Positions 18,557 through 57,484 are shown, numbered from the stretch's first letter. The stretch: 64,000 bases of DNA from Geosiphon pyriformis uo1 (GCA_016748015.1 JAAOMT010000718.1:186001-250000); one strand, 5' to 3'. Program-made: numbers and translations. Notes: generated from the letters alone by a model not told the origin.

Positions 18557-19943
18557 TTAAGTATTCAAGTTTGGTTGTTGTTCTATTATAATTATTAGTT
18601 CTAAATTTCGGAGAATATCTTCAGGATTAATTAAAGGGGAATGTGTATCAATTTGTGGAATTAATGTTTCAGGATTGTTTCTGGAATAATAGTGTTTCAA
18701 TCTGTCTTTATGTGCAACTTTTGCTAGTATTTTGTCATCAAGTTTTAACTTGTATGATCCATTGTCTAGAATTTCGTGAATATAAAATAGTCCATCCCAT
18801 TTGTTTTCAAATTTTCCACTTCATTGTTTTTCAGCCTTAGTTTTGTGTAAGAGAACTTTATTTCCAACTTTAAATTTGTTGGTAATAGATGGTAATTTGT
18901 TGTCATGTTTTTCTTTTTGTTGAGCTTGGGAATGTTTAATATGAGTTGCTGCTATTCTTCTTTTTCTTTCCAGTGTACTAAAAAGAGTGTAGGCCCTTTT
19001 TTGGAGTGTTTTTTGAAAGTTTTTTTCATTGATTGGTTGCACAGAGTATGTTTCTACTGTGAAATTAATTGGTAATGTTGCTGTCCTTCCATAAGTAAGA
19101 TTAAATGGTGTGTGTTTTGTAGTATTCTGTTTTAGTGTTCTGTATGCTAATAACATTGATGGAATAAAGATATCCCATTCTTGCTCAAAATCTGTTGAGA
19201 CTTTGGCTAGAGATTCACACAATGTTCTGTTAAAACGTTCTACAAGTCCATTTGTTTGAGAATAATAAGGTGATAATAAAGGTCTTTTGACATTAAACCA
19301 TTCACAAATTTCTTGTATTAAGTTGTTTACAAAATGTGTTCCTTGATCAGATAAAAGTTCAATTGGGCATCCATGTCTACAAATAATGTCTTTATAGATG
19401 AAATTTGCTACTGATTTTGCATCTACTCTTTGGATGGCTCTAGCTTCAGGCCATTTGGTAAGATAATCTACTGCTATTGCAATATAGCGATTTCCTTGGG
19501 TTGTGATAGGTAATGGTCTGACTAAATCAATTCCAACTCTGTCAAAAGGTTGTCCAACTTTGATTGGATTTAAAGATTCTGTGGGGCAAGTTCCTTTTCT
19601 TCTTTGACAATTATCACAAGATTTTACATATTGTCAAATATCTTTTTGCATGTGAGGCCAAAAATAATGTTCAAGGGTTTTTTGAATTGTTCCATCTCTT
19701 CCTAAGTGTGCTGAAGACGGATCTGTGTGCATATTATATAGAATTGTTTTTTTTTTCATTTTCCTGTATTAATCTAAGTGGTTGGTTTGAGTTTTTACAA
19801 TTTTTGTAATAGATTTTGTTGTGGTGTATAAAATATTGTTTGGATTGGTGTTGTAATCGATGTTTTTCACTTGGAAACCAATTTTCTGGCATGGTGAGAG
19901 TTTCTAAATAGTTTTTAATGTTGTTGTAGTTTTCTGGGTCCAT
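18557..19943 (-). pseudogene. Element A stand-alone integrase ORF
   Basis: Starts MDPENYNNIKNYL. Contains HHCC-region remnants, GIDLV, LSDQG, NGLVERFNRTL and a GPF-type C-terminal domain. Confidence 0.9.
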
Positions 19944-20022
19944 TGTTGTTGATTTTATTGTTTGTTCTGCTGTTAAGTTTGTTGGTGTTTTGTTGGTGTT
20001 AATGTTGATATTGATGTTGGTA

Positions 20023-22627
20023 TTAATATTGTTTTATTCTTGAGAGGCTATCAATATTAGTGTGTAGTTTTCCTGGTTTGTGATGTACAATGTATCTGTA
20101 GTCTGCTAGGAAGTCATTCCATTGAGACTGTTTGGCACTTTGTTCAGTTTTCTTTTTATTAAGCCATTTAAGACCAATATTGTTAATTATTATGTCAAAT
20201 TCTTTTCTATTCTTCAGGTATTGTTGAAAGTGTTTGAAAGCCCAGATGACTGCAGCAGCTTCTAATTCAGTTGAGCCATATTTGAGTTTTGTTGGCTTGA
20301 GTGTTCTGCTGACATAGGCGATAATTTGTTTCTGGCCATTTTCATCCAATTGTGATAAGATGGCACCAAATGTTATGTGTGAAGCATCAGTGGCTAATTG
20401 AAATTGTTTGTTGAAGTCTGGGTAAACAAGAACTGGGACTGTTGTCAATTTTGTTTTAAGAGTTTCAAAAGCTTTTTGTTGTTCTTTAGTTCATTTGTAT
20501 GATACATTTTTGTTGGTAAGATAATTGAGTGGTTTGGCAATTTCTGAGAATTCTTTTATAAATTTTTGATAATAAGAGACTAATCCTACAAATCTTCGTA
20601 ATTCTGTGGTATTTTTGGGAGTTTGAAAGTTTTTGACAGCACTAATTGTTCCAGAATTTGGTTTGACTCCATCTTTGCTAACAATGTGTCTGAGGAAGAT
20701 TAAGCTTGTTTTCCCAAAGTGACATTTTTCAATATTTAACTTTAATTCTGCTTTCTGTAATCATTGAAAAACTTCTCACAGGTGAATAAGGTGGACTTCA
20801 AAGCTTGGTAAGTATATATCAGTGTTATCAAGATATACAACTACTGATTGCCACAAGAGCCCTTCATATACAACATTCATGAGTTGCTGAAATGTTGCTG
20901 GTGCATTGCAGAGTCCAAAAAACATAACATTGAACTCATAATTTTCTTTTTGGGTGGTAAATGCTGTTTTGGATCAGTCTTTTGGGTCTATTTCGACTTG
21001 CCAATATCTACTTTCCAAGTCCAAAGTTGAGAAGAACTTGGCTTTTCCTAAAGCATCTAACATGTCATCAATTCTTGGAAGAGGGTAGGCATCTCCAATT
21101 GTAATACTATTCAGTTGTCTATAATCAACACAGAATCTGATTTTTTCGTTTTTCTTTTTAACTAAAACTACTGGTGAGGCCCAAAGACTTCTTGATGGTT
21201 AAATCAATCCGTTATTGAGCATTTTTTGGATCTCTTCTCTAATGAATTGGTGGCTGGCAGGTGGCACTCGATAAGCTTGTTGACGTTTTGGTGAAGCATC
21301 TTCTGTATGGATCTGATGTTGAACAATGTCTGTTTTTCCCAAGTCATTGTTGTCTTTTGCAAATATATTTGTAAATTCAGTTATCAATTGTTTCAATTGT
21401 CTTTGTTGTTAAGGTTTTAAGGGACTCATGTTAATACAAAAGAGTTTTTTTTCCAAAAGATGGTAGTTTTCAGTGGTGAGAATGATATTTGGATTTGGGA
21501 GTAGAGTGTGCCATACAATTTTGATAAAATTAGAGACAATTTGAGGGTTTTCATCTTGAAAAATATTGCTGTGTATGATTCCAATCTCTAATTTGTTTAA
21601 TAAAACAATAAGGTAATTATTAAGATTGTAGAATATAACTCAAAATTTTTTCATTTCTTTGGGAATATAAACGTTTGGAATTGAGATTTCATCCTTCAAA
21701 CAGATTTGTTTATTGAATTCAAAAATTTGTTGGGTAGTAGTGGGTTTTGAGCAAGTGTAAATTTCGTGATGTTCTCCAAAAGGTGAAATGGTAATTGGTT
21801 GGAGAAGTTGAAGAATCTGGTGAGATTCATTTTGTATTTTAAGAGCTATGTTTATTGGAACTGTAAATTGTCCAGTTAAACCAAAACCTTGAGTTCTTCT
21901 TTCACTTTTTCCCAATTGTTCTCTATTGTTAACTGATTGTAGACCCGAAATATTGATTAAGAGTAGGTAAATTGCTTAAGCAATTTTTTCAGCATGTTCA
22001 ATCTTGAATAGTTTGTCTGTTTCATTCTGCAATATGATGGTAATGTCTCCAGTGTATCCTGCATCTATAACTCCTCCTCTAATATTGATTCCTTTGCTTG
22101 CCAATAATGATCTGGAGGCAATTTGAACCATTGCTTCAGGTAGAATTTCAAGAGCAATTTTGAGATTGATTTTTGTTAAAGACTTTGGTTGGAGAACCAA
22201 AGTATTTTTTTCTAGGTATCTTAGGTCATATCTGGCATCAATTTCGTGTGCTTTTTCTGGTCTGATTCTTTGGCCATGGTTGTCAAAGTATTTAAGTTGT
22301 AGAGGTGGTTGCTTTTCAAGAAGATAGATGGGGGTGGTTGGTAGTTCTTTTACTAGTTTAGATACTCCAAATTCGATTTCATTTTCATTATTCTCCTCTG
22401 GCAGGAGAATGTTAAGAGCATAGCATTCTGAACACTATTTATTATCACAAGGCATGATGTATTCTTCACACAATTAAATGTTCATTTGTCATAATCATTG
22501 AATTTAAGCTTCTTGAGTCGGATATGTGTGGCTTGCAATTTGGTGGTAGGTTTCTACTTCATCTTCATAATCAAATTCAGCTTATTCCATGATATACTCA
22601 ATGTATTCAGCTTTTTTTATTTGGCAG
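20023..22627 (-). pseudogene. Element A ORF1 3' part: Cys-rich tail, dUTPase (~21870-22260), RT, RNase H
   Basis: dUTPase motifs ASRS, GGVIDAGYTG, KIA, RRTQGFG. RT motifs RFCVDYR, YLDN. RNase H motifs LATDAS, TELE, NIDSLSR followed by a stop. Confidence 0.9.
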
Positions 22628-26700: not shown

Positions 26701-29564
26701 GCATGTGGTGAAATCCTGCCAGATGAAAGACTCTGGAATGATGTGCCTGGCAGAGGAAGAACATGTGACGAGGCTTGTCAATACACCATATTAATCAATG
26801 ATTGGGTACGAAAAGGAACCCCTATCAAGGACGCTTGGAAATGAGCACTCAACAGGCTAGATGGTTATCCACACGATGACCACAAAATCTGGAGAATGGC
26901 AAGCGCCAAGGCCGAAGGTGCCACACCTGAAGAAATATGAAAAATTAAGGACAACCCTTGGATGCCCAAATATACTGGATCTGACTACCCTGAGGATGAT
27001 TTCTTCACAGATAACCCAGATGCATTTCAGAACTGATATCAGGAATTGGCCCCAACTCGTGAGGAACAGGAGCAAAGGTTGGCCAATTTAAATACCAAAC
27101 TATGCGATCACTGTTTGATCTCCTGTCACTTCCAGTACTGTGATAAATGTGATCTCATGTTTAATCTGCCTTCAAGAATACTGTTTCCAATCACCAAACT
27201 ACCTGAACCCAAAGAAGAGGTATTGATTACCGAGGACATGTCATTTCAAGATCCAACTGAAGATACCGAAACAGAACAGTATCTCGCATATCCCAACCTA
27301 TCCAAAAAACTAGAGCTAAAATGGTACAGTGACAATGAGGAAAGAATCTGCCCCAAAAGAGTGCATAACACCAATGCTGGTTTCAACCTACAATACTCCA
27401 GACAATCACTCATCATTATAGCCTCACATTCTTTCGTAAAAATAGATCTTAAGATAGCATTAGAAATTCCTGTTAGTACAATGGTACAAGTTGTCTCTCA
27501 ATCTAGTCTAACCAAGAAAGGAATCGACATAAAAGGAGGAATCATTAATGCTGGTTACATGGGAAACATTATCGTAATATTACAGAACAATTCGGACAAA
27601 TCCTACAAAATAGAATCACAAGAAAAGATTGCCCAAGCTATCTTCCTACCCCTAGTCAAAATACCCCAATTAACCCTGGTAACAATCTGAGAAAAGTTAG
27701 GCCTCACTGCCCAAGGAATCAATGGGTTTAGATTAAGTGGAAGAGGAAACGTACCAGTTAATTTCATGGAAAAAGACAGTGACCAGATAGAATTTATCCA
27801 CACTGACACCATCATCTCCATTCCTCCATACCAACAATACATTCTTAAGGTGAATCGAAAGATCCAAGATCAAGCTCTATTATTTGAAGCCAGTTCCGAA
27901 ATCTGTTCCCTAGCCAATGTTGCTAATCTATACCTACTGGCCAAAGCCCATAAACACTTCAAAATCTTCATCCACAACCCGACAAAAGATGTCATTGAAA
28001 TCCCTGAAGAGACCTTCATCAGTTTCATATCCGCAGATAGTCAGAATCCTGAAAAACCCCAGTCCATTCCAGATTTCGCACAATTATTCTTATTTTGTGA
28101 CATTATCTCACAAGTATGGAATTTGCCAAAAGAAAGTTACTTGTTTACACCAGAAGAGATCAATAAATTAAATTTAAGAAATTTAAGTACCAACAAATGC
28201 AACTCAAAGTCCTTCTGAATCAGTATGCTGATATCTTTGCCAGTAAAAATGAGTTTGGATGCACCGACATCATGAAGCATCAGATTGATACAAGAGATGC
28301 TCGACCAATTAAGCAACAAGCTTACTATGTACTCCCATCTGGTGATAACCTAATTAAGCAAGAAGTGCAACGGATGCTTGATAACGGCCTAATCAAAGAA
28401 TCGTTAAGCCCTTGGTCCTCGCCAGTAGTCTTGGTCACCAAGAAAAACAGAAAAATGCGATTCTGCATAGATTATTGAAAACTAAATAGCATCATGCAAG
28501 GAGATAGTTATTCCACTCCCCTCATCCAGGAAATTCTGGACAATCTAGGGAAAAAGAAATGGTTCTTGTCATTAGATTTAGCAAATGATTACTGGCAAGT
28601 TAAAATGGACCCCAAAGACAAAGGAAAAACAGCGTTTACCACTCAAGATGGAAACTTCAAGTTTAACATAATGCCTTTTAGATTTTGTAATGCTCCTGCC
28701 ACGTTTCAACATCTGATAGATGTAGTATACAAAGGAATCCTTTGAAAATCAGTAGTAGTCTACCTAGACAACACAAACGTGTTTTCCGAAACATTCGAAG
28801 ACTATCTGCTCCACCTGCAACAAGTCTTTGAATGCCTTTGTAGTGCTGAATTGAAACTCAATCCTGAGAAGTGCTTCTTTGGAAAAACTGAGTTAAAATT
28901 CCTAGAACATGTAATCAGCAAGGACAGAGTTAAACCTGATCCAGATAAAGTACAAAAAATCAAGGATTTTCTAGCCCCAATCAACCTCAGAGAATTACAA
29001 GAATTTCTAGGATTAGCAGGATATTATCATCAATTTGTCAAAGGTTTCTCAAACATCACAAAACCACTCCATCAATTGTTGTCTAAATATGTACCGTACT
29101 TGTAAAAGGAAGATCAACAGAAAGCATTCGACTATCTCAAGCAGCAATTGATCACATCCCCAATCTTGATTTATCCAGATTTCACTAAATGGTTCATTGT
29201 CACTACGGACGCCTCGAAAAATACTCTAGGAGCAGTCTTATTACAGATAAGACTGGACAATAGAGAACACCCAGTTGTCTATGCTAGTCGCAGCACTAGC
29301 CCAGCAGAAAAAAATTACAGCACAACAGATCTGGAATGTCTTGCCATTTATTGGACCATACAGACTTGGAAACATTACCTCAGTTAACCATTTGACCTAT
29401 ATACTGACCACAAAGGACTTATTTGGTTACTCAATAATCCACAACTAGAAAAAAAATATGCGAGATGAAGTACTTATCTACAACAATTCCCATTCAAAGT
29501 CTATTACAAGGAAGGATCTAAGAACACCAATGCCGACAGTTTGTCGAGGATGCCACAAACCTAA
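23740..29564 (+). pseudogene. Element B ORF1: N-domain, gag (CA, CCHC), protease, Cys-rich domain, dUTPase (~27340-27745), RT, RNase H
   Basis: CYYCQKPGHITRDC; LILNSGSAGSI; GGIINAGYMG, KIAQ; RFCIDY, YLDN; TTDAS, NADSLSR then TAA at 29562-29564. One frame apart from a lesion near 28190. Confidence 0.92.
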
Positions 29565-29574
29565 TTCCAGACCC

Positions 29575-30942
29575 ATGGACACACTCACTTATCAACAACT
29601 ACATCAGTACCTATTGACACTACGTTTCAAGGAGATATTATCTCAACAGGAACAGAGTACCATACAAAAACAAGCCTGAAATTATTTTATTCAAGACAAC
29701 CAACTATATTGACAAGAACACCAAAACCACCTCAACTCACAATGACTAATCATGGACAGTGAAAGAGAAACTATACTATATAGCGTGCATTCAGATCCGA
29801 CTGCAGAACACTTTAACAAAGATGCTACTTTTGAAAGAACACTAAACTTATACTATTGGCTAATGATGCACAAAGACATTTTTGAATGTGTGCTCAATTG
29901 TAACACATGCCAACAAAGAGGAAGAGCAAGATTAACAGAACCACTTCGACCCATTCCAGTTGGAAATCCATTTGATAGAATCAGAATCGATTTGGTTGGA
30001 CCTCTTTCAATTACATCCCAAGGAAATTGCTATATTGCTGTAGTCATAGACTATTTTACAAAATGGCCAGAAGCCAGAGCAATCCAAGTGGCCGATGCCA
30101 AAACAGTCGCCAAATTTGTGCATTAAGACCTAATTTGCCGACATGGATGTCTAAAAGAATTATTATCTGATCAGGAAACACACTTTGTTAATAATATGCT
30201 GACTGAACTAAGCCAATAGTTTGGAATAAAGAGATCCTTATTGTCACCATACCACCCACAAATGAATGGACTGGTAGAATGATTTAACAAAACACTGTGC
30301 AAAGCACTAGCAAAAATAAATCATGAAAACAGACAAGAATAGAACTTATTCATACCTTCTGTACTTTTTGTATACCGAACATTGAAACAAAATACGACTC
30401 AGTTCACACCATTCGAACTAGTCTATGGAAGAAAAGCTACATTACTGATTGAACGAATAATACCGTCATACCCAACAAAAACAATCAATGAAGAAAATTT
30501 TGAGGCTACCTTATACCAAAGAACGTACCAGCTAATAAAAACGTTGGAAAACAATCGAAGAACAGCAGCTGACAATATTAGTCACACTCAAGAATGACAA
30601 AAAGAAAGACATGATAAACACTTATTAGAACAACCAATGGAATTCAAGATTGGAGACCAAATACTATTACATCATATAAAAGCTGAGAAACAGTGGAGTA
30701 GAAAGTTTGACCCAAAATGGGACGGTTCATTCCACATATACAAAGCGTTAGGAAATGGAGCTTACAAATTACAATTGGAAGACAGAATTTTAAAGAAAGT
30801 AGCACATGGAAATCAGTTAAAAATTTATCATGTAAAACAGGAATCATCATCATCAGTACCTCAACTAGGAACACAAATTTCATTAATCAGACCAGAAGAT
30901 ATACCACGAGATCTGGAACCAATCATCATCATCAAAACGTAG
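29575..30942 (+). pseudogene. Element B stand-alone integrase ORF
   Basis: Starts MDTLTYQQLHQYL. H-x6-H...CNTC zinc motif, IDLVGP, LSDQ, NGLVE, KWDGSF, tail PEDIPRDLEPI. Confidence 0.92.
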
Positions 30943-35200: not shown

Positions 35201-37881
35201 AACTTTATCACTACTTTTATGATGCTGAGATGATTTTCAACCTAGCAATGGCATTAATTAATGGAGCTACCAAAGAAGATGTTCGCCAAATAAAGGAAGC
35301 AGAATACATTGAATACACCATGGAATTAGCTGGATTCGATTACAAAGACGAAGTAGAAGTCTACCACCAAATTGCAAGTCACACCTACCCAACTCAAGAA
35401 GTTCAAATTCAACAATTAGAGCAAATGAACATTAGGCTATGTAAAAAATACATTATGCCTTGTGATAAACAGTGGTGTCCTGAATGCTACACTTTTAGTA
35501 TCCCCTTGCCCAGCGAAAATGATGAGAACAAAATTGAATTTGAAGAACCTGAAGCAATGGAAGAAATTAAAACAACACCTATTTACCTTATCAAAAATCA
35601 GCCTGCCTTATAACTTAAATACTTCAACAACAACGGACAAGGAATAAAACCCAAAAAAGCACATGAAATTGATGCTGGATATGACCTAAGATATCCAGAC
35701 AAAGATACTCTTGTTCTCAAACCCAAATCTCTCACAAAAATCAACCTCAAAATTGCACTCAAAATCCCACCAGGAGCAATGATTCAAATTACTTCCCGGT
35801 CCTCTCAGACAAGCAAAAGAATTAATGTCAGAGGAAGAATAATCGATGCTGGATATACTGGAGACATTACAGTAATGCTTCAAAATGAAACTGACAAACC
35901 ATTCAAGATCGAACATGCTGAAAAAATTGCCCAAGCTATTTACCTACCCTTAATCAACATTTTGGGTTTGCAACTAGTCAATCAAAGAGAACAATTAGAA
36001 AAAAGCGATAGAGAAACCCAAGGTTTTGGTTCAACTGGATGATTTACAGTTCCAGTTAACATAGCGCTTAATACATGAAACAAATCCCACCAAATTCTCA
36101 GACTTTCACAACCAATTACCATTTCACCCTTTGGAGAACATCTAGAAATCTACACCTGCCCAAAGCCAACAACCATACAACAAATTTTTGAGTCCAATGA
36201 ACAAGTCTGCTTGGAACATAATATTTTGATCCCAAACATTTATATTCCAGAAAGAACAAAGAAAGTCCAAGTTACTTTTTACAACTCCAATAATTACCTT
36301 ATAATTTTATTAAATAATTTAGAAATTGGAGTTATTCACAGTAATATATTTCAACAAGAATTACCCCAAACAGTCCCCGATTTCTCTGAAATTATTGAAC
36401 ATTCAATACCAAAAATCAACCCAAATCTCAGTTCCAAAAACTACCATGTTGTCATGGAAAAACTATTTCGAATCAACATGGGACAACTTGAACCACAACA
36501 ACAGACCCAGCTCAAAGAGCTAATTGCAGAATTTGCCGATATCTTCACTGAAAACAACAATGACTTAGGAAGAACCAATTTGGTCCAACACCAAATTTAT
36601 ACAGGAGATGCCAAACCAAGAAGACAACAAACATATTGAGTTGCTCCAGAAAGCTACCAATTCATCTGAGAAGAAGTACAACAAATGCTTAACAATGGGC
36701 TCATCCAACCCTCCATGAGTCCTTGGGCTTTACCTGTAGTGCTAGTTAAAAAGAAAAATAGAAAGATCTGATTTTGTGTTGACTATTAACAACTCAACAG
36801 TGTTACAATTGGAGACGCCTACCTCTTTCCCTGGATTGATAACATGTTAGATGCCTTTGGAAAATCCAAATACTTTTCAACACTAGATTTAGAAAGTGGT
36901 TACTGGCAAGTTGCTATGGATCCCAAAAATCACCCCAAAACAACATTTACCACCCAAGGCGGAAATTACGAGTTCAATGTAATGCCTTTCGGATTATGCA
37001 ATGCACCAGCAATGTTTCAGAGATTAATGGATGTTGTGTACCAAAGACTTCTTTGGAAGTCAGTAGTCATTTATCTTAATGATACTGATGTTTATTCTCC
37101 ATTGTTCAAATTACACTTAAAACACCTACAAAAAGTTTTTCAACGATTACAAAAAGCAGGATTAAAACTTAATATCAAAAAATGCTACTTTGGAAAAACA
37201 AGCCTGGTCTTTCTTGGTCATATCGTTAGTAAAGATGGAATTAAACCAGATCCTGAAAAAATCAGCGTTGTCAAAAACTTCAAAACTTCTCGAAACACTA
37301 CAAAACTAAGAGGATTCATAGGATTAGCATCCTACTATTGGAAGTTTATCAAAGAATTTTCAGAAATTGCAAAACTCCTCAACCAGCTCACTACCAAAAA
37401 CGTTGAATACAAATGGACTACTGAACACCAAAAAGCTTTTGAAATTCTCAAGAAAAAACTGACAACAGCTCCAATTCTCGCCTACCCAGATTTCAGCAAC
37501 CAATTTTAACTAGCTACAGATGCTTTATATACTGTCTTTGGTGCTATCTTATTACAACTAGACAACAATGGAAATGAGCAAGTAATTGCTTATGCTAGCA
37601 GAACATTAAAACCAGCTGAGAAAAACTATCCTGCCACAGAACTAGAAACAGCAGCTGTAATTTGGGCCCTACACCACTTCAACCTTTATCTCAGACCTAA
37701 AGAATTTGATATTATCACTGATAATATTGGACTCAAATGGCTTCAGAACAAAAATACTTAGCTGAATGCAAAACAAACCTGATAGACAGGATTTCTAGCA
37801 AACTATTAATACATAGTACATCACAAACCAGGAAAACTCCACACCAATATTGACTGTCTCTCCAGAATGAGACAAAATTAA
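32218..37881 (+). pseudogene. Element C ORF1 polyprotein (N-domain-CA-NC-PR-Cys-rich-dUTPase-RT-RNase H), single frame with point stops
   Basis: ORF pieces at 32263, 32794, 34003, 34744, 35095, 35779, 36211 and 36844 all share one frame. CHYCGISGHWKRDC; LILDSGSAGSI; YLND; NIDCLSRMRQN then TAA at 37879-37881. Confidence 0.93.
35640..36042 (+). pseudogene. dut: dUTPase domain of element C
   Basis: All five trimeric dUTPase motifs: DAGYDL, SRSS, IIDAGYTG, KIAQ, RETQGFGSTG. Confidence 0.92.
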
Positions 37882-37933
37882 AAAAACACAAAAACCAACA
37901 CTCAACTTAACCAACCAAAAGAGCCAACAAACA

Positions 37934-39319
37934 ATGAATTCAAAAAACTACAATGATCTCAAACAATATTTGGAAACATTAACAATCCCAACAAATTGGT
38001 CTCCAGATGAAAAACATTGATTACAACAACAAGCCAAACAATATTTTCTACACAACAATATTATTTATTACCGAAATTTCAAAAACCCAGACAAACCACT
38101 CAGATTAATACAAGAACAGGAAAAAGAGACTATATTATACAACATGCACTCAGATTCTTCATCAGCCCACTTCGGAAAAGACAGCACCACCCAAAAAACA
38201 CTAAAATACTACTTTTGGTCTCAAATAAAAAAAGACATTCACAAATATGTCGAATCTTGTGATAGTTGTCAAAGAAGAGAAGGAACTCACCCTACAGAAC
38301 CTTTAAACCCAATCAAAGTTGGACAGCCTTTTGACAGAGTTGGTATCAATTTAGTCAGACCACTATCTATCACAAACCAAGAAAACCGCTACATTGCAGT
38401 AGCTGTAGACTATCTCACCAAATGGCCTGAAGCCAGAACCATTCAATGGGCAGATGCAAAATCAGTAGCAAACTTCATCTATGAAGACATCATTTGTAGA
38501 CATAGATGCCCAATAAAACTTTTATCTGATCAAGGAACACATTTTGTGAACAATTTAATCCAAGAAATTTGTGGATGATTTAATGTCAAGAGACCATTAT
38601 CTTTATCCTACCATCCACAAACAAATGGACTGGTAGAATGGTTCAACAGAACATTGTGTGAATCATTAGCCAAAGTTTCAACCAATTTTGAGCAAGAATG
38701 GGATCTCTTTATTCCATCAGTATTACTAGCATATAGGACACTAAAACAAGATACCACAAAACACACACCATTTGATTTAACTTATGGAAGGATGGCAACA
38801 TTACCAATTAGTTTCACAGTAGAAACATACCCAGCACAACTAATCAATGAAAACAATTTATAAGAAATGCTTCAATGAAGAGCCTACACTCTGCTTAGCA
38901 CATTGGAAGGAAAACGACGAATAGCAGCCACCCATATTGAACACTCTCAAGCTCAACAAAAAGAACGGCATGATGACAAATTGCCTCCAGTCATCAATGA
39001 ATTTAAAATTGGAAACAAAGTTCTCTTACACAGAACTAAAGCTAAAAAACAATGGAGTGAAAAATTTGAGAATAAATAGGATGAACCATTCTTTATTCAT
39101 AAAGTTTTAGACAACGGATCATACAAGCTAAGACTTAATGACAAAATTCTAGCAAAAGTTGCACATAGAGATCATTTGAAACACTATAATTCCAAAAACA
39201 ATCCTGAACTATTAATTCCACGAATTGGTACACATTCCCCTTTAATCAATCCTGAAGACATTCCCCGAAATTTAGAACCAATAGTTGTCATTGAACAGCC
39301 TCCCAACTTGAACACTTAA
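37934..39319 (+). pseudogene. Element C stand-alone integrase ORF
   Basis: Starts MNSKNYNDLKQYL. HSDSSSAH...CDSC, LSDQG, NGLVE, tail PEDIPRNLEPI. Different frame from ORF1. Confidence 0.92.
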
Positions 39320-46245: not shown

Positions 46246-46697
46246 GCATGTTGTTTCACTTTTTGTTTGCCTTTGTTGTCTGTTTCTGTTTCTGATTCAA
46301 AGTCAAAAGAGTATTTAGATTGTACTGGGTATTTTTCTTCACAATACTTGATAATGTTGTAATTAAGTTCTTGAAAGTAGGTGGTATTACAGTTTAAGAA
46401 TTTAGCAAAAAGAATCATAAAAATAATACAAACTATTCAATCATAATATAGCACAGTAATAATCTTAGAAAGGTAATGATTAACATAGTAGCAAACACCA
46501 TCTCGCAATAGTGGCAAGCACCAGTTCACAATAGCAGCCAACACCAATTGGTGATAGCAGCAAACACCAGGTTGAAATATCAAAAAGAAAGTATTTTCTC
46601 GTAGAACTACAAACATGTATATATACAGTAGTTTTAATATTGGGAAATAATCAATCAAGTAATAAAAATCATAACTTATCAAGCAATAGATCTAATT

Positions 46698-47004
46698 NNN
46701 NNNNNNNNNNNNNNNNNNNNNNNNNNNNNNNNNNNNNNNNNNNNNNNNNNNNNNNNNNNNNNNNNNNNNNNNNNNNNNNNNNNNNNNNNNNNNNNNNNNN
46801 NNNNNNNNNNNNNNNNNNNNNNNNNNNNNNNNNNNNNNNNNNNNNNNNNNNNNNNNNNNNNNNNNNNNNNNNNNNNNNNNNNNNNNNNNNNNNNNNNNNN
46901 NNNNNNNNNNNNNNNNNNNNNNNNNNNNNNNNNNNNNNNNNNNNNNNNNNNNNNNNNNNNNNNNNNNNNNNNNNNNNNNNNNNNNNNNNNNNNNNNNNNN
47001 NNNN
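46698..47004. other. Assembly gap (307 N); the true gap is larger
   Basis: Only 313 bp of the 866-bp D LTR precede the gap and coding sequence resumes after it, so more than 550 bp (rest of LTR, PBS) are missing. Confidence 0.95.
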
Positions 47005-49404
47005 GCTGTGCTATTTACACACAAAATCAAAGTGATCTTGGATTACCAGAAGGGTGTTGTCCAGCAGAATCTGCCCTCACTTATTATATCAACGCCAGAA
47101 TAAATTATCATATAGGAAAGGAAGAAGAACCACACGACGCAAAACTTGGATTGTATAGAGAATTATCACAATACACTACAAAAGAAGTAGCAGTAATAGC
47201 CGCAACTATTGTCAAAATCCATCAAGAAATTGAGCAATATGCCAACAAAAATTTTCTAATATCCACAGGAAACACTAGGGAACGTGCCAACAAAACCAAA
47301 GAAAATTTAGAAACTAATCAGGAAAGTAACCAGCAAAAACTAGGAACACCAGCTCAAACACCAAAGAAAACTGTCACTCAATCAATAAAGAAACAATGTA
47401 TTTATTCACCAGAAGATAAATCATACCATTTTTCACTAGAAAATAAGATACAAATTCCATTAGGAGCTGCATCATCATCAACATCAACTCCACAAACGCC
47501 AAGAACTCCTAGTTATATTGATAAAATTAAACAACGTAACTGGGGAGACATACCAATTACAGGAGGATATTCATCACTATTCTAAAACCCTCTTTTTCAG
47601 CCAAAATTTAGAACGGAGTTTGAAAACCAAGAAGAGAAGTCTGAATCAGAATCCGAAAAAGAGACCAGTGAAAAAACAATCACAAGACCAGTCACTGGAA
47701 CAAGCAGCCAGTCTAGAAACCAAGAAACTCATGATCAAGAGGAAGAACCAGATATAAGGGAAGCCACCTTTAGGAACGCTCAAGGAAATATCATCCCACC
47801 TTCTCTTAGACCAATAAACCCACCAGCAGAAAACGGCAATGAAATGACCACACCATACATTGCAAGACTAACAGATTTCTCAGGAGAGAAAGAAGAAACG
47901 GACGTGCACACATGGCTCAGAGAAGCACAAAAAGCCATTCAGGCAAATAACTGGAAGGACCAAAGAGCAATTCAAACATTACTTTTCTTCCTGAAAGGCA
48001 CAGCCGACTCGTGGTATCAAAGTCTGGAAACAAAACCCACGAGCTTCGCCGAATTTAAAAATGCACTCCTGGAGTATTTTAGCGACCCAAACGCCATAAT
48101 CCAACTACAGAATGAATTCAATACTATCAAGCAAAATACTGGTGAAACTGTCATCCAATACCTTGCTCAATTCAATCGAATTTGCCATCAGATTGAAGCG
48201 ATTGAACAAGGATACTACACTGATCCTCAGATTTTAAATCAGTTTATTAGAGGATTAAAAAGCAGTATTTTAGGAAGAGTACGCCCTGCCCACCCTAATT
48301 CCTTACCAGAAGCCGTTACGCTCGCCAGAGCCCTTGAATTGGCTAAGAAAGAAGCTAACCATAGTCAAATGGTTAACATGGTAATGGAGGAAAATAAGAC
48401 AGAAACATTAGAGAAAAGAGTAATACGATTAGGGGAGGAACTCTCTAAGAAAATAGAAAGTTATCTCATCTCGGATCTGAGAAAAAATACATACCAACCA
48501 CCCCAAAGACACAGCCAGGAAGTCAGCGACAGTTGAAATAATCGCTCATCGTGCCAGGAATTCAGAACAGAAACATGCGCCTGCCATTTTTGCAAACGCA
48601 TAGGACATTTGATTAGTCAATGTCAAACGCGAATGATGCAGAAAGCATGCAAAAATAATTACTACGCGCCACCCCAAATGTCCAGAAACCAGTACATGCC
48701 AATACCACGCCAATATCCCACCACGTATCAAAATCAAGGAGCTTACCAGCAACAGCCTATGATAGCCAACCCGAATTGGCATTCTGAAGCCCGAAATCAG
48801 CCCATGTGGAACCAGAACACGTTGGTCCAGAGGAATCCAAACCGCGCCGGAACCAATCAGCAAACCAATCCAAACTACCAAAATTATCAACAAACTTACC
48901 TTAATATACTGGAAAACCTGATCATCGGAAACAATGACGGTAGAAACATAAACAGAACCAAAAATTCCTCCAAATTGAGCCAGACAATACCACCAGCAGT
49001 TGCCACCGAAGATAGCAGCCTCACAGCTATTTTTCCTTTTGAATTAGAGGAAAACGAGGCTATGTTCAGTGGAGCAGCATTGGACGAAAAATGCCCAATC
49101 ACTGCTATGTATACGGAAGCCACTGTAAACAATACCCCAATCAAACTTATCTTAGACAGCGGATCCGCTGGAAGCATCGTAACGCTTTAACTAGTAAACC
49201 AACTGGGTTTCAAAGTTGATCGTGCCGCGACGTCCCAAATCATAACAGCCGATGGAAGTACAAAGCTGCTTCATGGCAAAATCGACTCATTCCCTTTCGA
49301 AATTAACGGCATAGTAATACCTACAAAAGTATTAGTAATGGACGTTACACAATATCAAGCGTTAGTAGGGAATGACTGGCTAACAAAAGCCAATGCCACC
49401 CTAG

Positions 49405-50050
49405 ACTGGACCACCCAAGAGCTTCTGATCAATTATAATGGCCACCAGGCCAAAATTCCAGCCACCTGTGGCCACTTCCAAAAACCCAGTGCCAACCAAA
49501 AACCTACCTTCAAATTTGAGGAAAATCCAGCACTACCAGCCATCGAAACCTATCAGCTCTCTTGGGCTGATGACCAAAGAACAGGACTACTAGCCGTACC
49601 AACGTGGACCAGCGAAGAAAGATCCGAATAGAACCAGGTAAGTTCACGAAGAAACCACCAGCGACGCAGACCAAAGCTAGAATGCTCGGTTTGCAAGAAG
49701 AAACTCTCATCTATGACNNNNNNNNNNNNNNNNNNNNACTGGACCACCCAAGAGCTTCTGATCAATTATAATGGCCACCAGGCCAAAATTCCAGCCACCT
49801 GTGGCCACTTCCAAAAACCCAGTGCCAACCAAAAACCTACCTTCAAATTTGAGGAAAATCCAGCACTACCAGCCATCGAAACCTATCAGCTCTCTTGGGC
49901 TGATGACCAAAGAACAGGACTACTAGCCGTACCAACGTGGACCAGCGAAGAAAGATCCGAATAGAACCAGGTAAGTTCACGAAGAAACCACCAGCGACGC
50001 AGACCAAAGCTAGAATGCTCGGTTTGCAAGAAGAAACTCTCATCTATGAC
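49405..50050. other. 20-N gap (49718-49737) flanked by an exact 313-bp duplication; unmerged contig overlap
   Basis: 49405-49717 is identical to 49738-50050. Confidence 0.9.
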
Positions 50051-50779
50051 TGCATGCAGCGCACCAGACAAAGACCCAAGAAACCCCACCCACTACTATT
50101 GTAACCGTTGTAACAAAGAAAAATACGGTTATCCAGAAAGACACGGAAAATGGGACGAGGAACCGTGCCTCGCTTGTGGAGAACCATTACCAAGAGGGTG
50201 CGACTGGAATGACTTACCAGGCAGAGAAAGAACGTGTGACGCAACTTGCCAATACACGATCCTCATCTGTGACTGGGTAAGAGGAGGAACGCTGTTTGAA
50301 GCAGCGTTCAACAGAGCGTTAAAAAGACTACAGCACTACCCACACGACAAGGACGAGTTGTATAACACCGCACAAGCCAAAGTAAGAGGAGGAACTGCTG
50401 AAGAAATACGACGTTGGAAAGAGTCAGCCGAAGTAGCCGACGAAGTTGCCAGTTACAACATGTTCGACTCAGTGGACGAATTCCAGGACTACTACTAACA
50501 ACTATGCCCCACTCGACAAGAGCAAGAACAATACCTCGCCCAAATCAACACTTACCTCTGCAAAAACTGTCTCATCCCGTGCCAAAGTCAGTGCTGTGAA
50601 GAGTGTCAAGACGAAAGGGACTTAGAAAGAAAAATGGAAATTGAGAATCAGCAGTCTCAAAATCAATCAATAAATCAACAAGACTTACCTGACGGTCCCA
50701 AGTCAGAAAAATTTGTAGCCTATACTGACCTAGAACAGGTGACCAACATCCGATACTTCGACAACGGGCACTTAGGAAT

Positions 50780-51175
50780 AATACCCGAAAGAGCCCATCC
50801 AACTGACGCTGGATTTGATCTACGTTATCCAGAAGACCAATCCACAACGTTACCACCCAGAAGCATCACCAAAATCGACCTAAAAATAGTGGTTGAAATT
50901 CCGCCAGGAATAATGGTTCAAATGGTGTCGTGATCAAGCCTCATGAAAAAAGGAATAAGCGTTCAAGGAGGAGTAATTGACTCCGGATACACTGGAAATT
51001 TGATGGTTTTGCTACAGAACAATTCGGAAAAGCCTTATACCATTGAATCTAAGGAAAAGATTGCACAAGCAATTTTCCTACCATTGGTAAAAATTGGGAA
51101 ATTCGTGTCAGTAGAAAATCGTGAGGAATTGTCACAAACAACGAGAGGAACTTTTGGTTTTGGATCGACAGGAAA
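50780..51175 (+). pseudogene. dut: dUTPase domain of element D
   Basis: DAGFDL, S*(R)SS, GGVIDSGYTG, KIAQ, RGTFGFGSTG. Confidence 0.92.
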
Positions 51176-53035
51176 AGGAATTGAAGCGAATTTTGCTGAA
51201 ACAATAGAGGAAAAAGACGAAGTAATTAAAAATGAGCAGTCCATCATGCTCCTACCATATGGAAAATCAGAAATAAGAATAAAAAAGACAATTAAAGAAA
51301 AAGACCTAATATTTGAGCCCTACCCAGAAACTTGCCAACAGTTTCTCATAGGACTTACTAACCTTTTTATTCCAGCTGATAAAGCTCAATGGATAAAAAT
51401 TCCTATCGCAAACACCACAGAAGAACCCGTCTATATTCCGGAAGATACCATCATTGGATACCTTGGAACGGAGCTAGAAAACGCGTCAATACCACAAGAA
51501 ATTCTAAATTTCCCAGAAATTGCCCTCTACTGTGAACTCACTTCAATAAATTGGCAACAATTGGTAGAATGCTATCAATTTACGCCAGAAGAATTGGCCA
51601 AATTAAACATTGGAACAATGGATCCTGACCAACAGCGACAATTAAAAGCATTAATTTTAAAATACTCTGATATATTTTCAAGAAATGGCGAATTTGGAAG
51701 AACCAACTTGGTTTAACACCAAATTCCCACTGGAGACGCCAGACCTGAAAAACAACACGCTTACCGTGTCCCACCAATGGAGCATAATTTTATCAGAGAA
51801 GAAGTCCAAAGCATGTTAGAAAAAGGAATAATACAACCATCAATGAGCCCATGGTCCTCACCAGTTGTTTTAGTAAGGAAAAAGAACGGAAAAATTAGAT
51901 TTTGCGTCGACTATCGCAAACTAAACAGCAAAACAACCAAAGACTCATACCCAATACCATTAATTGACGAAATTTTCGACGTTTTTGGAGGAGCAAAATG
52001 GTTTTCTACACTGGACTTGACCAGTGAGTACTGGCAAGTGGAAATGGACCCAAAGAACAGGCATAAAACAGCATTCACAACACAAAATAGCAATTATGAG
52101 TTCAATATAATGCCATTTGGATTAACAAATGCTCCCGCGACATTCCAAAGACTAATGGACGTAATTTACTCCGGAATCCTGTGGCAATCCGTTGTTGTCT
52201 ACTTGAATGATACAAATGTTTTCTCGTCAAAATTCACGGATCATCTCCAACATTTACAACAAGTTTTTGAGAGATTGAGACATGCTGGACTTAAACTAAA
52301 TCTAGAAAAATGTTTCTTTGGGAAAAATGAGCTAGCATTTTTAGGACACGTAGTTGAAAAAGATGGAATAAAACCAGATCCATCAAAAATAGACAAAGTG
52401 AAAAATTTTCTAGTACCTCAAAACATTTCAGAAGTTAGAAGCTTTTTAGGACTCACATCTTACTACTGCCGCTTTGTAAAAAACTTTTCAAACATTGCCA
52501 AACCCCTTAATTACCTACTATCTAAAAATGTGAAGTTTGAATGGACTAAAGCACAACAAAAAGCTTTTAAGTACCTTAGACAAAAGCTCATTGAATCACC
52601 AATAATGATCTATCCGAATTTCAACAAGAAATTTATTTTGGCCACAGATGCCTCTGGAACTAGACTTAGAGCCATTCTGTTACAAAAAGATGATAATGGA
52701 AGAGAACGTGTAATCACTTATGCCAGCAGAAGTCTCAGTACGGCAGAACAAAACTATGCAGCACATGAACTTGAATGCTTAGCAGTAGTCTGGAGTTGTG
52801 TTCACTTTGACACATATTTACAGTACCAACCCTTTGAGATTACGACAGATCATAGAGGTCTGGTCTGGTTAAATAACAAGAAAGCGCTAAAAGGAAAATA
52901 CGCCAGATGGTCACAAACGTTAGCACCATACGATTATATTATCAATTACAAAAAAGGTACCAAAAATGCTAATGCCGACTGTTTGTCAAGAATGAGACAC
53001 ACATAAAAATCACCAACCCATCCGCCACAACAACA

Positions 53036-54415
53036 ATGAACAACCACCTTTACAAAAACCTCAGCCAATACTTGAAAACACTACAAATAGACAAAGAAAT
53101 GCCAGTAAAAGAGCTAATTAAGCTCCAAAAATTAGCAAAACACTATTTCATCCAAAATCACATACTTTATTACCGGAATCGACAAAATCCAGATAATCCA
53201 TTAAGAGTTATAACCACGGATGAAAAAGAAACTATCTTATTTAACATGCACTCAGATATTCATTCAGGCCACTTTGGAAAAACAGCAACCATCCAACGTG
53301 CAACTAGCCGTTACTATTGGCCAAAAATGAGCTCAGACATAATCCAATACATAAGAAATTGTGACCCATGCCAATGAAGAGGAGGAGCAAAAACAATGGA
53401 ATTATTAAGACCAATAAAAGTTGGACAGCCATTTGACAGAATCGGAATTGATTTAGTTGGACCCTTACCAATAACAACAAGAAACAACTGTTATATTGCA
53501 GTAGCCATGGACTATCTCACCAAATGGCCAGAAGCTAGAGCTATTAAAACAGTTGATGCTATTTCCGTAGCTCAATTCGTACATAAAGACTTAATTTGTC
53601 AACATGGATGTCCACAAGAATTGCTATCAGATCAAGGCACACACTTCGTAAACAGCACTTTAAAAGAACTTAGCCAAAAATTTGGAATCAAGCGACCACT
53701 GTCATCACCATACCACCCTCAAACAAATGGATTAGTTGAAAGATTTAATCGCACATTATGCGAATCACTGGCGAAAATTAGTAATGAACATGAAAAAGAA
53801 TGGGATTTGTTCATACCAGCAGTACTATTAGCATATAGAACAGTAAAACAAGATACTACACAATTCATACCATTTGAACTAGTTTATGGAAGAAAAGCCA
53901 CATTACCCGTTGAACTTACTATCCCAACTTATCCGAGTAACACTATCACGGAAGCAACATTCCAGGAAACACTACTTAGAAGAACATACAAATTAATGGG
54001 AACTTTAGAAAACAAAAGAAGAAAAGCAGCACAAAATATTGAACAATCACAAGAACAACAAAAAGTGAGACATGATAACCAGTTACCAGATAATATAATT
54101 AGCTACAAAATTGGAGATAAAGTATTGTTGCATCATACAAAAATGGAAAAACAGTGGAGTAGAAAATTTGATCACAAGTGGGATGAACCATTTTATATTC
54201 ACAAAATACTTGGAAATGGAGCATACAAGCTAAGACTAGATGATAAAATATTAAGAAAAGCAGCACATGGTAACCGGCTGAAATTCTATTACAGTAAACC
54301 AGTAATAACAACAAAAACACCCAGAATTGGTACACAATTACCTTTAATTCTACCAGAACAAATTCCACGAGATTTAGAACCAATAGTTTTAATTGAACAT
54401 TATTCGAAAAGATAA
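53036..54415 (+). pseudogene. Element D stand-alone integrase ORF (one CGA>TGA stop at 53375)
   Basis: Starts MNNHLYKNLSQYL. HSDIHSGH...CDPC; GIDLVGP, LSDQG, NGLVERFN (D,D35E); GPF-type domain; no chromodomain. Confidence 0.95.
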
Positions 54416-54499
54416 TTAATCTTAGATCACAGCAAAAATGATTTAACAACCATAAAAACGCATGCAAAAGATTCCAAAATAACAGTCAAAATTAAAACA

Positions 54500-55168
54500 A
54501 TGATACTTATTCCAGAAAACATCAACAATATAACTCAACAATTAGTTGAAAGCTTACAACAATTAAAATCCAATCTAGAAATCACAGTTAATAGCTCCAA
54601 AATAACATACATAAAAAGAACAATAGAAAATCCAAAAACAAGAAAAGAACATAATTTCGAACCATATAATATTGCCAAATATAACACCAAATTTATTAGC
54701 AAAGTTATTGAAAAATTAGAGATAGCATTGGGCAATACATTAATAATGGAAGAAATAGAAATAAGTGAATTAACACCAGACATATTTAGCAACTTGAAAA
54801 CGAAATTCCCAATTAATTACTGTTATTATCAACTAGGAAAGCACTTGAACATACAAACATTATACTCAAAAGACTCAACTAGAGTGTTTGACAAAACAAC
54901 TATCCAACTATTAGAACCTTTCATTGGAAAAACCAACACTACATTCCATTCAAAAACAGTTTACAGAATTTTCAAAGCATTTGAAAACTGTCACAAATTA
55001 TTGTTGGACCCAACCATGAACATAATAACAACCAACAGTATTGGACGACTTACCAACTCGCAATTTCAAGAATTACAACAACAAATTAATAACACAGTAT
55101 TGAACCACTATAGTAACTTAGAATTTAATGAAGAAATTAACTTCAATTTCGACGGAGCTCAATCTTAA
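54500..55168 (+). CDS. Element D ORF3, intact 222-aa protein of unknown function in the env position
   Basis: Uninterrupted ATG-to-TAA frame between integrase and PPT. Homologues occupy the same position in A, B and C. Confidence 0.85.
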   Translation: MILIPENINNITQQLVESLQQLKSNLEITVNSSKITYIKRTIENPKTRKEHNFEPYNIAKYNTKFISKVIEKLEIALGNTLIMEEIEISELTPDIFSNLKTKFPINYCYYQLGKHLNIQTLYSKDSTRVFDKTTIQLLEPFIGKTNTTFHSKTVYRIFKAFENCHKLLLDPTMNIITTNSIGRLTNSQFQELQQQINNTVLNHYSNLEFNEEINFNFDGAQS

Positions 55169-55181
55169 AAGGAGGGGATAA

Positions 55182-56047
55182 TGTTACAGTTTAAGAATTT
55201 AGCAAAAAGAATCATAAAAATAATACAAACTATTCAATCATAATATAGCACAGTAATAATCTTAGAAAGATAATGATTAACATAGTAGCAAACACCATCT
55301 CGTGATAGTGGCAAGCACCAGTTCACAATAGCAGCCAACACCAACTGGTGATAGCAGCAAACACCAGGTTGAAATATCAAAAAGAAAGTATTTTCTCATA
55401 GAACTACAAACATGTATATATACAGTAGTTTTAATATTGGGAAATAATCAATCAAGTAATAAAAATCATAACTTATCAAGCAATAGATCCAATTTTATTC
55501 AACAAACTCCACTTTAAATCATACTTTCAAATTAAATATCCCAAAAAACCTTTAAAATCAAAAAGAAATGAAAAAGAATATTTAAAACTGAACTATCACA
55601 ACCCAAAGTATTAAGAAACTTACTTGTATTATTTATTGAATGAAACTATCATTCATCAACTGAATCCCTTGGAAGAATAATCCTTGATCAAGATTATTCA
55701 CGTTGTTACTAATTGATAAAAGCTTTATTGTGAGAATTAGAAAAGCGCTAAAGACCATTAACATTCTGTGTTTCTAGATTAGAGAAACACATCAGGCAAT
55801 TGCAAGGATAGCCTCAGAGAAGACCCCAGACAGTGGGTAGATTTCAGTTCAGCCTCTGAGAAGGAGTACATAAACACACACAACAATCAAGAATTAAAGA
55901 ATAACTTACACCGCAACAGTAAAAAGAAAGCCTTCAGTGTAACAGTGATATTATCACACAAATAGAACTGAGGAACTCACGAAAGACTGATTGCAATTAA
56001 AGCGGGATATCAGCAATTAAATATAACAAGAAAACCATTCCATAACA
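55182..56047 (+). repeat. 3' LTR of element D (866 bp) with 4 x 23-bp tandem units at 55283-55374
   Basis: TGTTAC...ATAACA ends. The first 313 bp differ from 46385-46697 at 7 positions by my count, all transitions. Confidence 0.95.
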
Positions 56048-56344
56048 GTGGCAAGTGTTTCACTGTTAAGGTCTTCAGTTCCCAATTGTAAATAATGTAC
56101 TAGATTATTGTAGAGGTTGCTTTTTACTTTTAAAATGTTGTAATTTCTAAGAAGATAATTATTGATATGGTTTTCAATATATTGATAGAATGTTCTTTCA
56201 ACAATTTCAATTCCATCTGGGATGTTGAATCTTTGCTTGCAATGGGTGTAAATTGACTGATAATACTCTAGAGTTGTTGTGTCTGGTGTGGTTGCCACTT
56301 TGAAGTTTGTTGTTGCTGTGTTATTTCCATAGGAAAGCACCAAA

Positions 56345-57350: not shown

Positions 57351-57484
57351 GTGGGTGCAGTGAGTTTTGATACTTTTATTATTTCAAAAATAGAGAAAAC
57401 ATTGAGAAATCTTTCAGTTACAGTTATGAGCCTTTCAGCTAAAATGAAAAATAATGGTTCTGTTTCTACTATTTGTTCTTTTCA

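Follow-up and report, generated by a model that had tools for sequence, protein, structure and literature searches.

Organization of the Window

The window, a stretch of 64,000 nucleotides of DNA from Geosiphon pyriformis uo1, carries four nested LTR retrotransposons, called A to D. Element A, on the minus strand, encloses D, B, and a solo LTR in inverted orientation; C is nested in B. The window annotation thus places the insertion site of D inside A. The features considered below are as follows:

46385..56047, plus strand: element D, a full-length decayed Ty3/Gypsy LTR retrotransposon, with LTRs and the target-site duplication GTGG
47586..48536, plus strand: Gag capsid region of D (Pfam Ty3_capsid, E 1.6e-15; Retrotrans_gag, E 4.6e-14)
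49047..49490, plus strand: aspartic protease region of D, with a DSG motif, interrupted by a stop
50934..51173, plus strand: C-terminal part of a dUTPase domain of D, in the Pol frame 5′ of the reverse transcriptase (RT) (Pfam, E 2.1e-17)
51717..53006, plus strand: RT-RNase H of D, ending in LSRMRHT followed by TAA (Pfam; match to 4ol8)
53007..53035, plus strand: spacer of D from the Pol stop to the integrase (IN) start, 29 nt, A/C-rich, without ATG
53036..54415, plus strand: stand-alone IN ORF of D, 459 codons, with one internal TGA at 53375
54416..55168, plus strand: open frame of D 3′ of IN, up to the polypurine tract; no Pfam match
55167..55181, plus strand: polypurine tract of D
55182..56047, plus strand: 3′ LTR of D, TG...CA
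37867..37936, plus strand: junction of element C (Pol stop ends at 37881, spacer of 52 nt, IN ATG at 37934)
29550..29577, plus strand: junction of element B (Pol stop ends at 29564, spacer of 10 nt, IN ATG at 29575)
19941..20037, minus strand: junction of element A (Pol stop ends at 20023, spacer of 79 nt, IN ATG at 19943)

The LTR pairs of D, A, B, and C are 90-98% identical and have TG...CA ends. Those of D are 97.8% identical across the first 313 nt, the remainder of the 5′ LTR being a gap of Ns. Target-site duplications read GTGG/GTGG for D and CCAC/CCGC for A, and are decayed or ambiguous for B and C. A PBS-like TGGTGC is found immediately 3′ of the LTR in A, B, and C, the corresponding position of D falling in the N gap, and polypurine tracts were identified in A to D.

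The IN frame contains one internal stop in D, five in C, and eight in B, and is frameshifted in A. CpG is low in the window copies (observed/expected 0.17-0.65). Transposons of Rhizophagus irregularis are highly CG-methylated according to excerpts of bioRxiv 10.1101/2021.03.30.436303, and the CpG loss seen here would fit such a methylation. An earlier note on this DNA had described the four elements as divergent and endowed with dissimilar LTRs. They are not four independent families, and the argument from the LTRs is weaker than it was put: A and C share 76% identity along 5.9 kb and about 80% in their LTRs (BLAST), and B, C, and D fall into one subclade of the integrase tree. From these comparisons, the window contains about three families of one branch, all decayed. 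Because all four copies are decayed, the window alone cannot tell design from decay.

The Pol/Integrase Junction

In all four elements, the Pol frame stops three to four codons past the LSR motif at the end of RNase H. The ends are LSRMRHT* in D (53006), LSRMRQN* in C (37881), LSRMPQT* in B (29564), and LSRIKQY* in A (20023). IN then begins at an aligned, conserved Met (ATG at 53036, 37934, 29575, and 19943, in the same order), after spacers of 29, 52, 10, and 79 nt. None of these lengths is a multiple of three (2, 1, 1, and 1 modulo 3), the IN frame is free of stops across the spacers, and ACA or AACA precedes three of the four ATGs. The earlier note had described this layout, and every one of its coordinates, lengths, and phases was recovered when recomputed.

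At each window junction, the Pfam domains upstream of the stop are RVT_1 and RT_RNaseH; those that follow the ATG are Integrase_H2C2, rve, and SH3_Tf2-1. Residues 8-426 of the RT-RNase H query from D align with residues 61-476 of the 478 residues of the solved Ty3 RT chain 4ol8 (E 1.3e-92), and the Pol end of D coincides with the end of this chain. On the other side, the IN ORF of D is laid out as an N-terminal extension, HHCC, a catalytic core, and an SH3-like tail. A confident IN model (pLDDT 89.9) has its first helix at residue 3 and PFV IN as its top fold match. Among solved structures, IN matches Ty3 Gag-Pol best (E 6.4e-53). As modelled, the break is on the RNase H/IN domain boundary.

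The Split Among Relatives

At the DNA level, relatives were found at no fewer than 80 metagenome loci, and 43 of the loci listed show both the RNase H end and IN. The two are split in 42 of these 43 listed junctions, L077 being the fused one. The remaining 37 of the 80 loci listed have no RNase H match within range. The N-terminus of IN is in view in 63 of the loci listed, 54 of which have an ATG at profile column 1, a count biased somewhat upward by the derivation of the profile from Met-started proteins. Six further loci have a Met a few codons downstream, behind stops, and the last three comprise a frameshifted, a fused, and a distant locus.

Several of the loci are intact. In L019, for instance, the Gag-Pol frame is open over 1621 codons and is followed by a 424-aa IN and a 143-aa ORF. 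With intact split elements on one side and the 42 split junctions of the 43 listed on the other, the relatives decide for design over decay. This supports the view of the earlier note that the break is ancestral rather than decay; it is old and functional, and IN has its own conserved Met.

A protein search with the IN of D, bounded by length and dependent on gene callers, gave 2372 matches of 252-804 aa. The best 120 of them are about 420 aa long and contain IN domains only; Met stands at profile column 1 in 101 of these 120, and the other 19 start later. A search for longer proteins returned six with at least 44% identity to the query. Four are devoid of both the RNase H end and the IN start, as expected from gene models joined through a predicted intron, and the fifth is a named gene model without the N-terminus of IN. 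The sixth, P0123, reads as a true RNase H-IN fusion with a short linker.

Named close homologues of the IN of D come from Rhizophagus irregularis, R. clarus, and Cetraspora pellucida. Hence, to judge from these relatives, the split-integrase Gypsy group likely belongs to root-symbiotic (arbuscular mycorrhizal) fungi. The prokaryote genome collection gave a few close matches, on small contigs (L087-L089 and L091), the others being distant. These contigs look like contaminants in prokaryote assemblies; L089 is in the assembly of a Gigaspora endosymbiont. No relatives of IN were found in the viral contigs searched.

Phylogeny and Origin of the Split

Integrase trees were built from 176 and 72 selected rows of 307, with three added loci and no named reference clades; A, with its IN frameshift, was left out. 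B, C, and D form one subclade with locus L002, the closest relative of the window, with 100% support. The backbone is unresolved in both trees. The fused P0123 comes out as the sister of five split rows (97% SH-aLRT) and thereby nests among split elements. A tree constrained to group all split rows is not rejected (p-AU 0.33); when P0123 is added to the constrained group, the tree obtained is better than that of the unconstrained search (p-AU 0.73). One origin of the split and one re-fusion would be the simplest reading.

An RNA Structure Upstream of Integrase in One Subclade

A 40-nt motif is present upstream of the IN ATG in 17 of the 80 loci listed, two of the 17 being copies of training rows. 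A short outer helix and a 5′ bulge starting with UGAAA are followed by a 6-bp stem, which is capped by an 8-nt loop, CANNGYGA. In the 15 rows of the model, two-sided changes are seen at 7 of the 12 pairs, and 96.7% of the cells are paired, the shuffles used for comparison ignoring kinship. In L088, a locus outside the training set, the motif scores 50.9 bits and all six stem pairs are kept with new letters. The motif ends 4 nt from the ATG in 9 of 15 loci listed, and mostly within 1-10 nt (range 1-33), and it starts 21-30 nt past the Pol stop in 10 of the 15 measurable loci. In the motif subclade, selection thus acts on RNA structure around the IN start. The covarying motif is new here.

The motif is limited to one IN clade, which includes an R. 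irregularis protein (seen as a protein only) and also L087, where the motif is absent. A search with the motif model found none in the window elements. A mini-intron was considered and rejected, the length being only about 34 nt and the CAG covarying with the stem. Six matches to the motif pattern in viral contigs were likewise discarded, being without stems and without IN.

No Rfam family matches the motif; the T-box family RF00230 is not returned either, with E up to 5 in 14 loci and up to 10 for the isolated region. The apex of T-box stem I contacts the tRNA elbow through two T-loops, AGAGA and UGxRA (PMC7583486, PMC4919913, excerpts). Like the Rfam consensus of this apex, the motif has a one-sided 5′ bulge and a stem of 6 bp, and its apical loop has a pentamer at its end. 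Its pentamers fit UGxRA and, loosely, AGAGA, in sequence and secondary structure only. However, the pentamers are swapped with respect to the T-box apex, and the bulge is longer and carries its pentamer at its 5′ end. Moreover, unlike a T-box riboswitch, the motif has neither specifier nor antiterminator. The possible resemblance to the interdigitated double T-loop of T-boxes is a lead.

Possible Reinitiation After the Pol Stop

The gap between the Pol stop and the IN ATG ranges from -14 to 727 nt in 39 measured junctions, three of these values having been set by hand (premature stops are among the causes) and the start of L061 being doubtful. The two frames overlap in 14 junctions, 19 gaps are of 0-100 nt, and 6 are longer, so that 33 of the 39 do not exceed 100 nt; the three phases occur 11, 15, and 13 times. 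Some relatives have TAATG or ATGA overlaps and others have spacers of close to 60 nt; overlaps of -1, -4, and -8 are also found at the junction between IN and the ORF downstream of it.

Judging from this layout, there is an even chance that IN is made by reinitiation on the full-length RNA after the Pol stop. Ribosomes would finish Pol at its stop and restart nearby, at the IN ATG of the same full-length RNA. With overlapping stop and start (-1 to -14 nt), the restart would be a direct stop-start coupling. In elements with a spacer, those of the window included, the small subunit would slide along a short ATG-poor tract to an ATG with a favourable context. In the motif subclade, the 40-nt RNA structure, located 21-30 nt past the Pol stop, would help to hold or place the ribosome. 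Subclades may use different expression routes.

In 28 spacers, 25 ATGs are observed for 40.0 expected (P 0.004, with rows that are not independent), and just 6 of the 25 lie outside the two longest spacers. Position -3 is a purine in 46 of the 54 IN starts, compared with 195 of the 304 internal Met codons. Both features, the scarcity of ATGs in the spacers and the good start context, are just as compatible with a separate mRNA. The 12 overlap elements considered carry 32 upstream ATGs in 100 nt for 15.5 expected, hence without avoidance, and in L067 an out-of-frame ATG, with A at -3, precedes the IN ATG by 7 nt without an intervening AG. These ATGs fit a ribosome arriving via Pol better than one scanning from a new 5′ end.

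Stop-restart at UAAUG or AUGA is described for caliciviruses, influenza B, victoriviruses, hypoviruses, and SART1, LINE-1 ORF2 is translated past a 63-nt spacer, and reinitiation in caulimoviruses is driven by TAV (PMC3542737, PMC5972666, excerpts). The dependence of stop-restart on a nearby RNA structure also has precedent (PMC5972666, excerpts). However, the same source describes eukaryotic reinitiation following long ORFs as rare, which counts against the reinitiation reading. Overlaps are not enriched: of 22 short junctions, 12 have a Pol frame that stays open as far as the ATG, against 10.4 expected by chance (P 0.31). A TGGGA, the calicivirus motif, lies no farther than 100 nt from the Pol stop in a single locus of 33, and the four window copies have none at that distance. 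No common fold was found upstream of the IN ATG among the window copies, a hairpin 5′ of the stop of C is not conserved in B or L002, and the upstream fold of L052 is not significant (z -0.89). Finally, simple scanning cannot carry a ribosome over the long spacers of L006 (365 nt, 7 ATGs) and L052 (727 nt, 12 ATGs); in L006, a 67-codon ORF could relay ribosomes over the spacer.

Other Possible Routes to Integrase

A subgenomic mRNA specific to IN, either spliced from the 5′ LTR region or made from an internal promoter, as for foamy-virus Pol and retroviral env, is possible, with less than an even chance of being correct. Beside the purine at -3 in 46 of 54 starts, ATGs are depleted over the 60-100 nt immediately 5′ of the IN ATG in spacer and motif elements, the motif subclade having 4 for 20.4 expected, while the long spacers of L006 and L052 are crowded with ATGs further upstream. 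AT-rich tracts lie 5′ of the RNA motif. There is also a precedent, since foamy-virus Pol is made from a spliced mRNA and packaged via the genomic RNA (PMC7828637, excerpts). In addition, contigs from sequencing run X1 show relatives of D with GT-AG splicing on the antisense strand. They contain five clear GT-AG introns, in the protease-dUTPase region, the junction and the RNase H end being outside the contigs; X1 is the sole run with D relatives (share 0.15) and is not recorded as RNA. However, there is no conserved acceptor, and 5 of the 28 spacers, that of D included, are entirely without AG. The codons of the RNase H end show no constraint that would reveal a branch point or an acceptor (47 rows), and in L018 the CAG of the motif changes to CGG together with its pairing partner. 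Furthermore, the overlap elements do not avoid upstream ATGs, and the ATG 7 nt upstream of the start in L067 would block a scanning ribosome.

Entry independent of Pol termination, in which the 40-nt structure or an A-rich spacer would recruit the ribosome or the initiator tRNA, or mark a processed RNA end, appears unlikely. In its favour, the structure covaries (two-sided changes at 7 of 12 pairs, with 96.7% of the cells paired), conserves the six stem pairs of the held-out L088, ends 4 nt upstream of the ATG in 9 of 15 loci listed, and carries two T-loop-like pentamers (UGxRA consensus, PMC7583486, excerpts) in an architecture resembling the T-box stem I apex. Nevertheless, this structure is found in just 17 of the 80 loci listed and is absent from the window and from L087, so that the route is not general. 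Where the distance could be measured, 10 of 15 loci have it 21-30 nt past the Pol stop, which points to termination coupling, and no IRES, ribozyme, or xrRNA of Rfam matches it.

A frameshift at the Pol stop or a readthrough, giving one Pol-IN polyprotein with an incidental Met, is very improbable. The IN frame is open back beyond the Pol stop in all four window copies and in 5 of 21 positive spacers of the relatives (L024, L035, L052, and L061 left out), and the lineage appears to recode elsewhere, with TTTAAAC at gag-pol overlaps and an in-frame TGA-CTA before RT. However, the other 16 of the 21 spacers contain a stop in the IN frame, which rules out both readthrough and a shift at the stop as general routes. 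In addition, the phases are spread (11/15/13), L002 is in phase 0 vs. +1 for A, B, and C and -1 for D, and the Met is nearly invariant. The earlier note had excluded simple readthrough, and the relatives agree with it as to the general route; its shifty-stop frameshift is not supported as the mechanism of the lineage, and may apply to the four window copies themselves.

Decay or assembly error, to which the low CpG and the several stops of the decayed window copies might point, is ruled out for practical purposes by the same break in 42 of 43 listed junctions from many assemblies and by split elements with entirely open Gag-Pol and IN frames.

The ORF Downstream of Integrase

In many relatives, a conserved ORF of about 140 aa, with 94 homologues, follows IN, from which it is separated by anything from short overlaps up to 1.3 kb. 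It belongs to no Pfam family. Its model is all-helical and confident (pLDDT 91.7), with no Foldseek match at E 0.001, a best VIA Z of 4.8, and no usable Atlas match. In the window, the downstream frame of D is homologous with those of A, B, and L002; the profile of the 140-aa ORF has no significant match among the window downstream ORFs (best iE 0.059). A TAV-like helper role for the downstream ORF would be a guess, made by analogy.

If this ORF and the RNA motif are put together, one may picture a polycistronic LTR retrotransposon in which translational control replaces the release of IN by the protease, and in which the T-box-like RNA of one subclade would grip the elbow of a tRNA, initiator or exiting, immediately 5′ of the IN start, possibly together with the conserved helical protein of the downstream ORF. 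We hold this picture to be rather unlikely.

Comparison With Known Systems

The elements resemble Ty3/Gypsy (Metaviridae, type Ty3) in their Ty3 capsid domain, in the order gag-PR-RT-RH-IN, and in the best structure matches, Ty3 RT and Ty3 Gag-Pol. The TG...CA LTRs, the PBS-like and PPT sites, and the 4-bp target duplication of the window elements agree with this. According to the ICTV description, Metaviridae have between one and three genes, and IN is a domain encoded by pol (PMC7879559). In contrast, IN is here a separate ORF with its own Met (4 of 4 window elements, 42 of 43 related junctions listed), and a non-env ORF often lies 3′ of it. By sequence, the window elements and their relatives are a Ty3/Gypsy variant with a stand-alone integrase gene.

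As in foamy viruses (Spumaretrovirinae), an enzyme ORF is translated apart from Gag. However, foamy viruses split the whole Pol from Gag by splicing, and their protease still cuts IN from Pol, whereas just IN is separated here and no splice site is evident. Foamy-virus Pol has its own encapsidation route, via the genomic RNA (PMC7828637, excerpts). The TAATG and ATGA overlaps and the spacers of about 60 nt recall victoriviruses, hypoviruses, caliciviruses, SART1, and LINE-1. However, the UGGGA that calicivirus TURBS have 40-90 nt before the stop is found in just 1 of 33 loci and in no window copy, and gaps range from -14 to 727 nt. The excerpts of PMC5972666 and PMC3542737 name no LTR element using stop-restart for IN. 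Caulimoviruses are also reverse-transcribing, with several close long ORFs on one RNA and a separate helper ORF (PMC3542737, excerpts), but the Gypsy elements studied here have LTRs and an integrase.

DIRS elements use a tyrosine recombinase, and Ginger transposons have Gypsy-like integrases outside Pol and are not known to carry RT or LTRs. DIRS-type elements have several ORFs, variously arranged (PMC7192593, excerpts). Two candidates for prior art were rejected. Troyka elements mostly have a single Gag-Pol, CG...CG termini, and a 3-bp duplication, and have been found in animals alone (PMC12440569, excerpts), as against the TG...CA ends and 4-bp duplication of the window elements; Kuafuorterviruses have a normal Pol (PMC11673190, excerpts). 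The separate-IN layout is absent from the excerpts of PMC5911963, PMC3248453, PMC2774666, PMC10224137, PMC7192593, PMC11673190, and bioRxiv 10.1101/2021.03.30.436303. More generally, no Gypsy group with a separate IN ORF is described in the literature searched, which consisted mostly of listings and left Repbase, GyDB, subscription journals, and supplements outside its scope. The stand-alone IN of these Gypsy elements is real, conserved, and apparently undescribed.

Implications

The presence of IN within Pol is the usual answer to two problems, the entry of IN into the particle and the coupling of its amount to that of RT. A stand-alone IN would need an unusual way to the DNA copy that is inserted. 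IN could bind the genomic RNA or Gag at assembly, or it could meet the cDNA once the latter is outside the particle. A separate packaging route, which the earlier note had regarded as needed, is one possibility among others.

The layout also matters for annotation. Gene predictors fuse RT and IN via unlikely introns or label IN as a host gene, and tools expecting one Pol frame would likely score intact split elements as dead. As for the RNA motif, its covarying structure has no Rfam match and is so compact that it could be probed directly; if the T-box-like reading were true, it would be a tRNA-binding regulatory RNA in a eukaryotic mobile element. Finally, with a large and successful lineage devoid of the Pol-IN fusion, the question of whether IN packaging is required becomes testable, as does that of how fungal ribosomes get to a second and a third long ORF.

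Sequences around the integrase start

In one subclade of the separate integrase (IN) ORF, a 40-nt RNA structure showing covariation and harboring two T-loop-like pentamers is found immediately 5' of the IN start codon (18 related loci). A search of Rfam with this structure gave no match, and it was not found in the window. In four loci of the same subclade (L019, L025, L028, and L040), Pol is prolonged by 236-315 aa past RNase H, the start of the extension being acidic; in L024 and L035, the extension is interrupted by stops. At locus L006, the Pol-IN spacer reaches 365 nt and contains a basic ORF of 67 codons. Downstream of IN, there is a conserved ORF, all-helical and about 140 aa long, that has 94 homologues and ends close to the polypurine tract; Pfam and fold searches with this ORF gave no match.

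L028:4462-4506; L019:5191-5241; L088:160-238; 15 further loci: 40-nt RNA structure
L019:4072-5166; also L025, L028, L035, L040: post-RNase H Pol extension
L006:2548-2751: spacer ORF
L018:1596-2042; L019:6633-7064; other loci: post-IN ORF
Window 54416-55168: post-IN frame

Possible recoding signals upstream of RT

TGA directly before CTA is a typical leaky-stop context. This pair occurs in frame 5' of RT in four loci (L006:870-875, L027:3290-3295, L052:3358-3363, and L067:1585-1590). In three others (L005, L038, and L039), the gag-pol overlap carries TTTAAAC.

Organization of the window

Positions 16701-57350 form a nested stack of decayed Ty3/Gypsy elements, in which D and B, together with an inverted solo LTR, lie inside A, and C lies inside B. 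In A, B, and C, the LTRs are followed by a PBS-like TGGTGC, which is also present in several related loci. GTGG (or CCAC) is found at one flank or more of the D, B, and A insertion sites alike, possibly reflecting a target-site preference. Within D, a 313-nt stretch duplicated at 100% identity flanks a 20-N gap and is probably an assembly artefact. In contigs of related copies (sequencing run X1), introns with GT-AG borders lie antisense to D; the antisense exon chain, read in the D copy, has no long open frame.

46381-46384; 56048-56051; 42720-42723; 57351-57354: GTGG/CCAC flanks of D, B, and A
50934-51173 (D); 27350-27675 (B); 21979-22260 (A): dUTPase domain, between protease and RT
49405-50050: duplication and gap
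49841-51543, antisense: introns, protease-dUTPase region
55547-55622, antisense: intron, LTR

Public assemblies and gene models

Four retrotransposon contigs of the split-IN lineage (L087, L088, L089, and L091) are found within bacterial genome assemblies, of which they are probably contaminants. Finally, four public gene models (P0121, P0122, P0124, and P0128) fuse RT or gag with IN and omit the end of RNase H as well as the beginning of IN; these joined models are likely to be annotation artefacts of the Pol/IN split.
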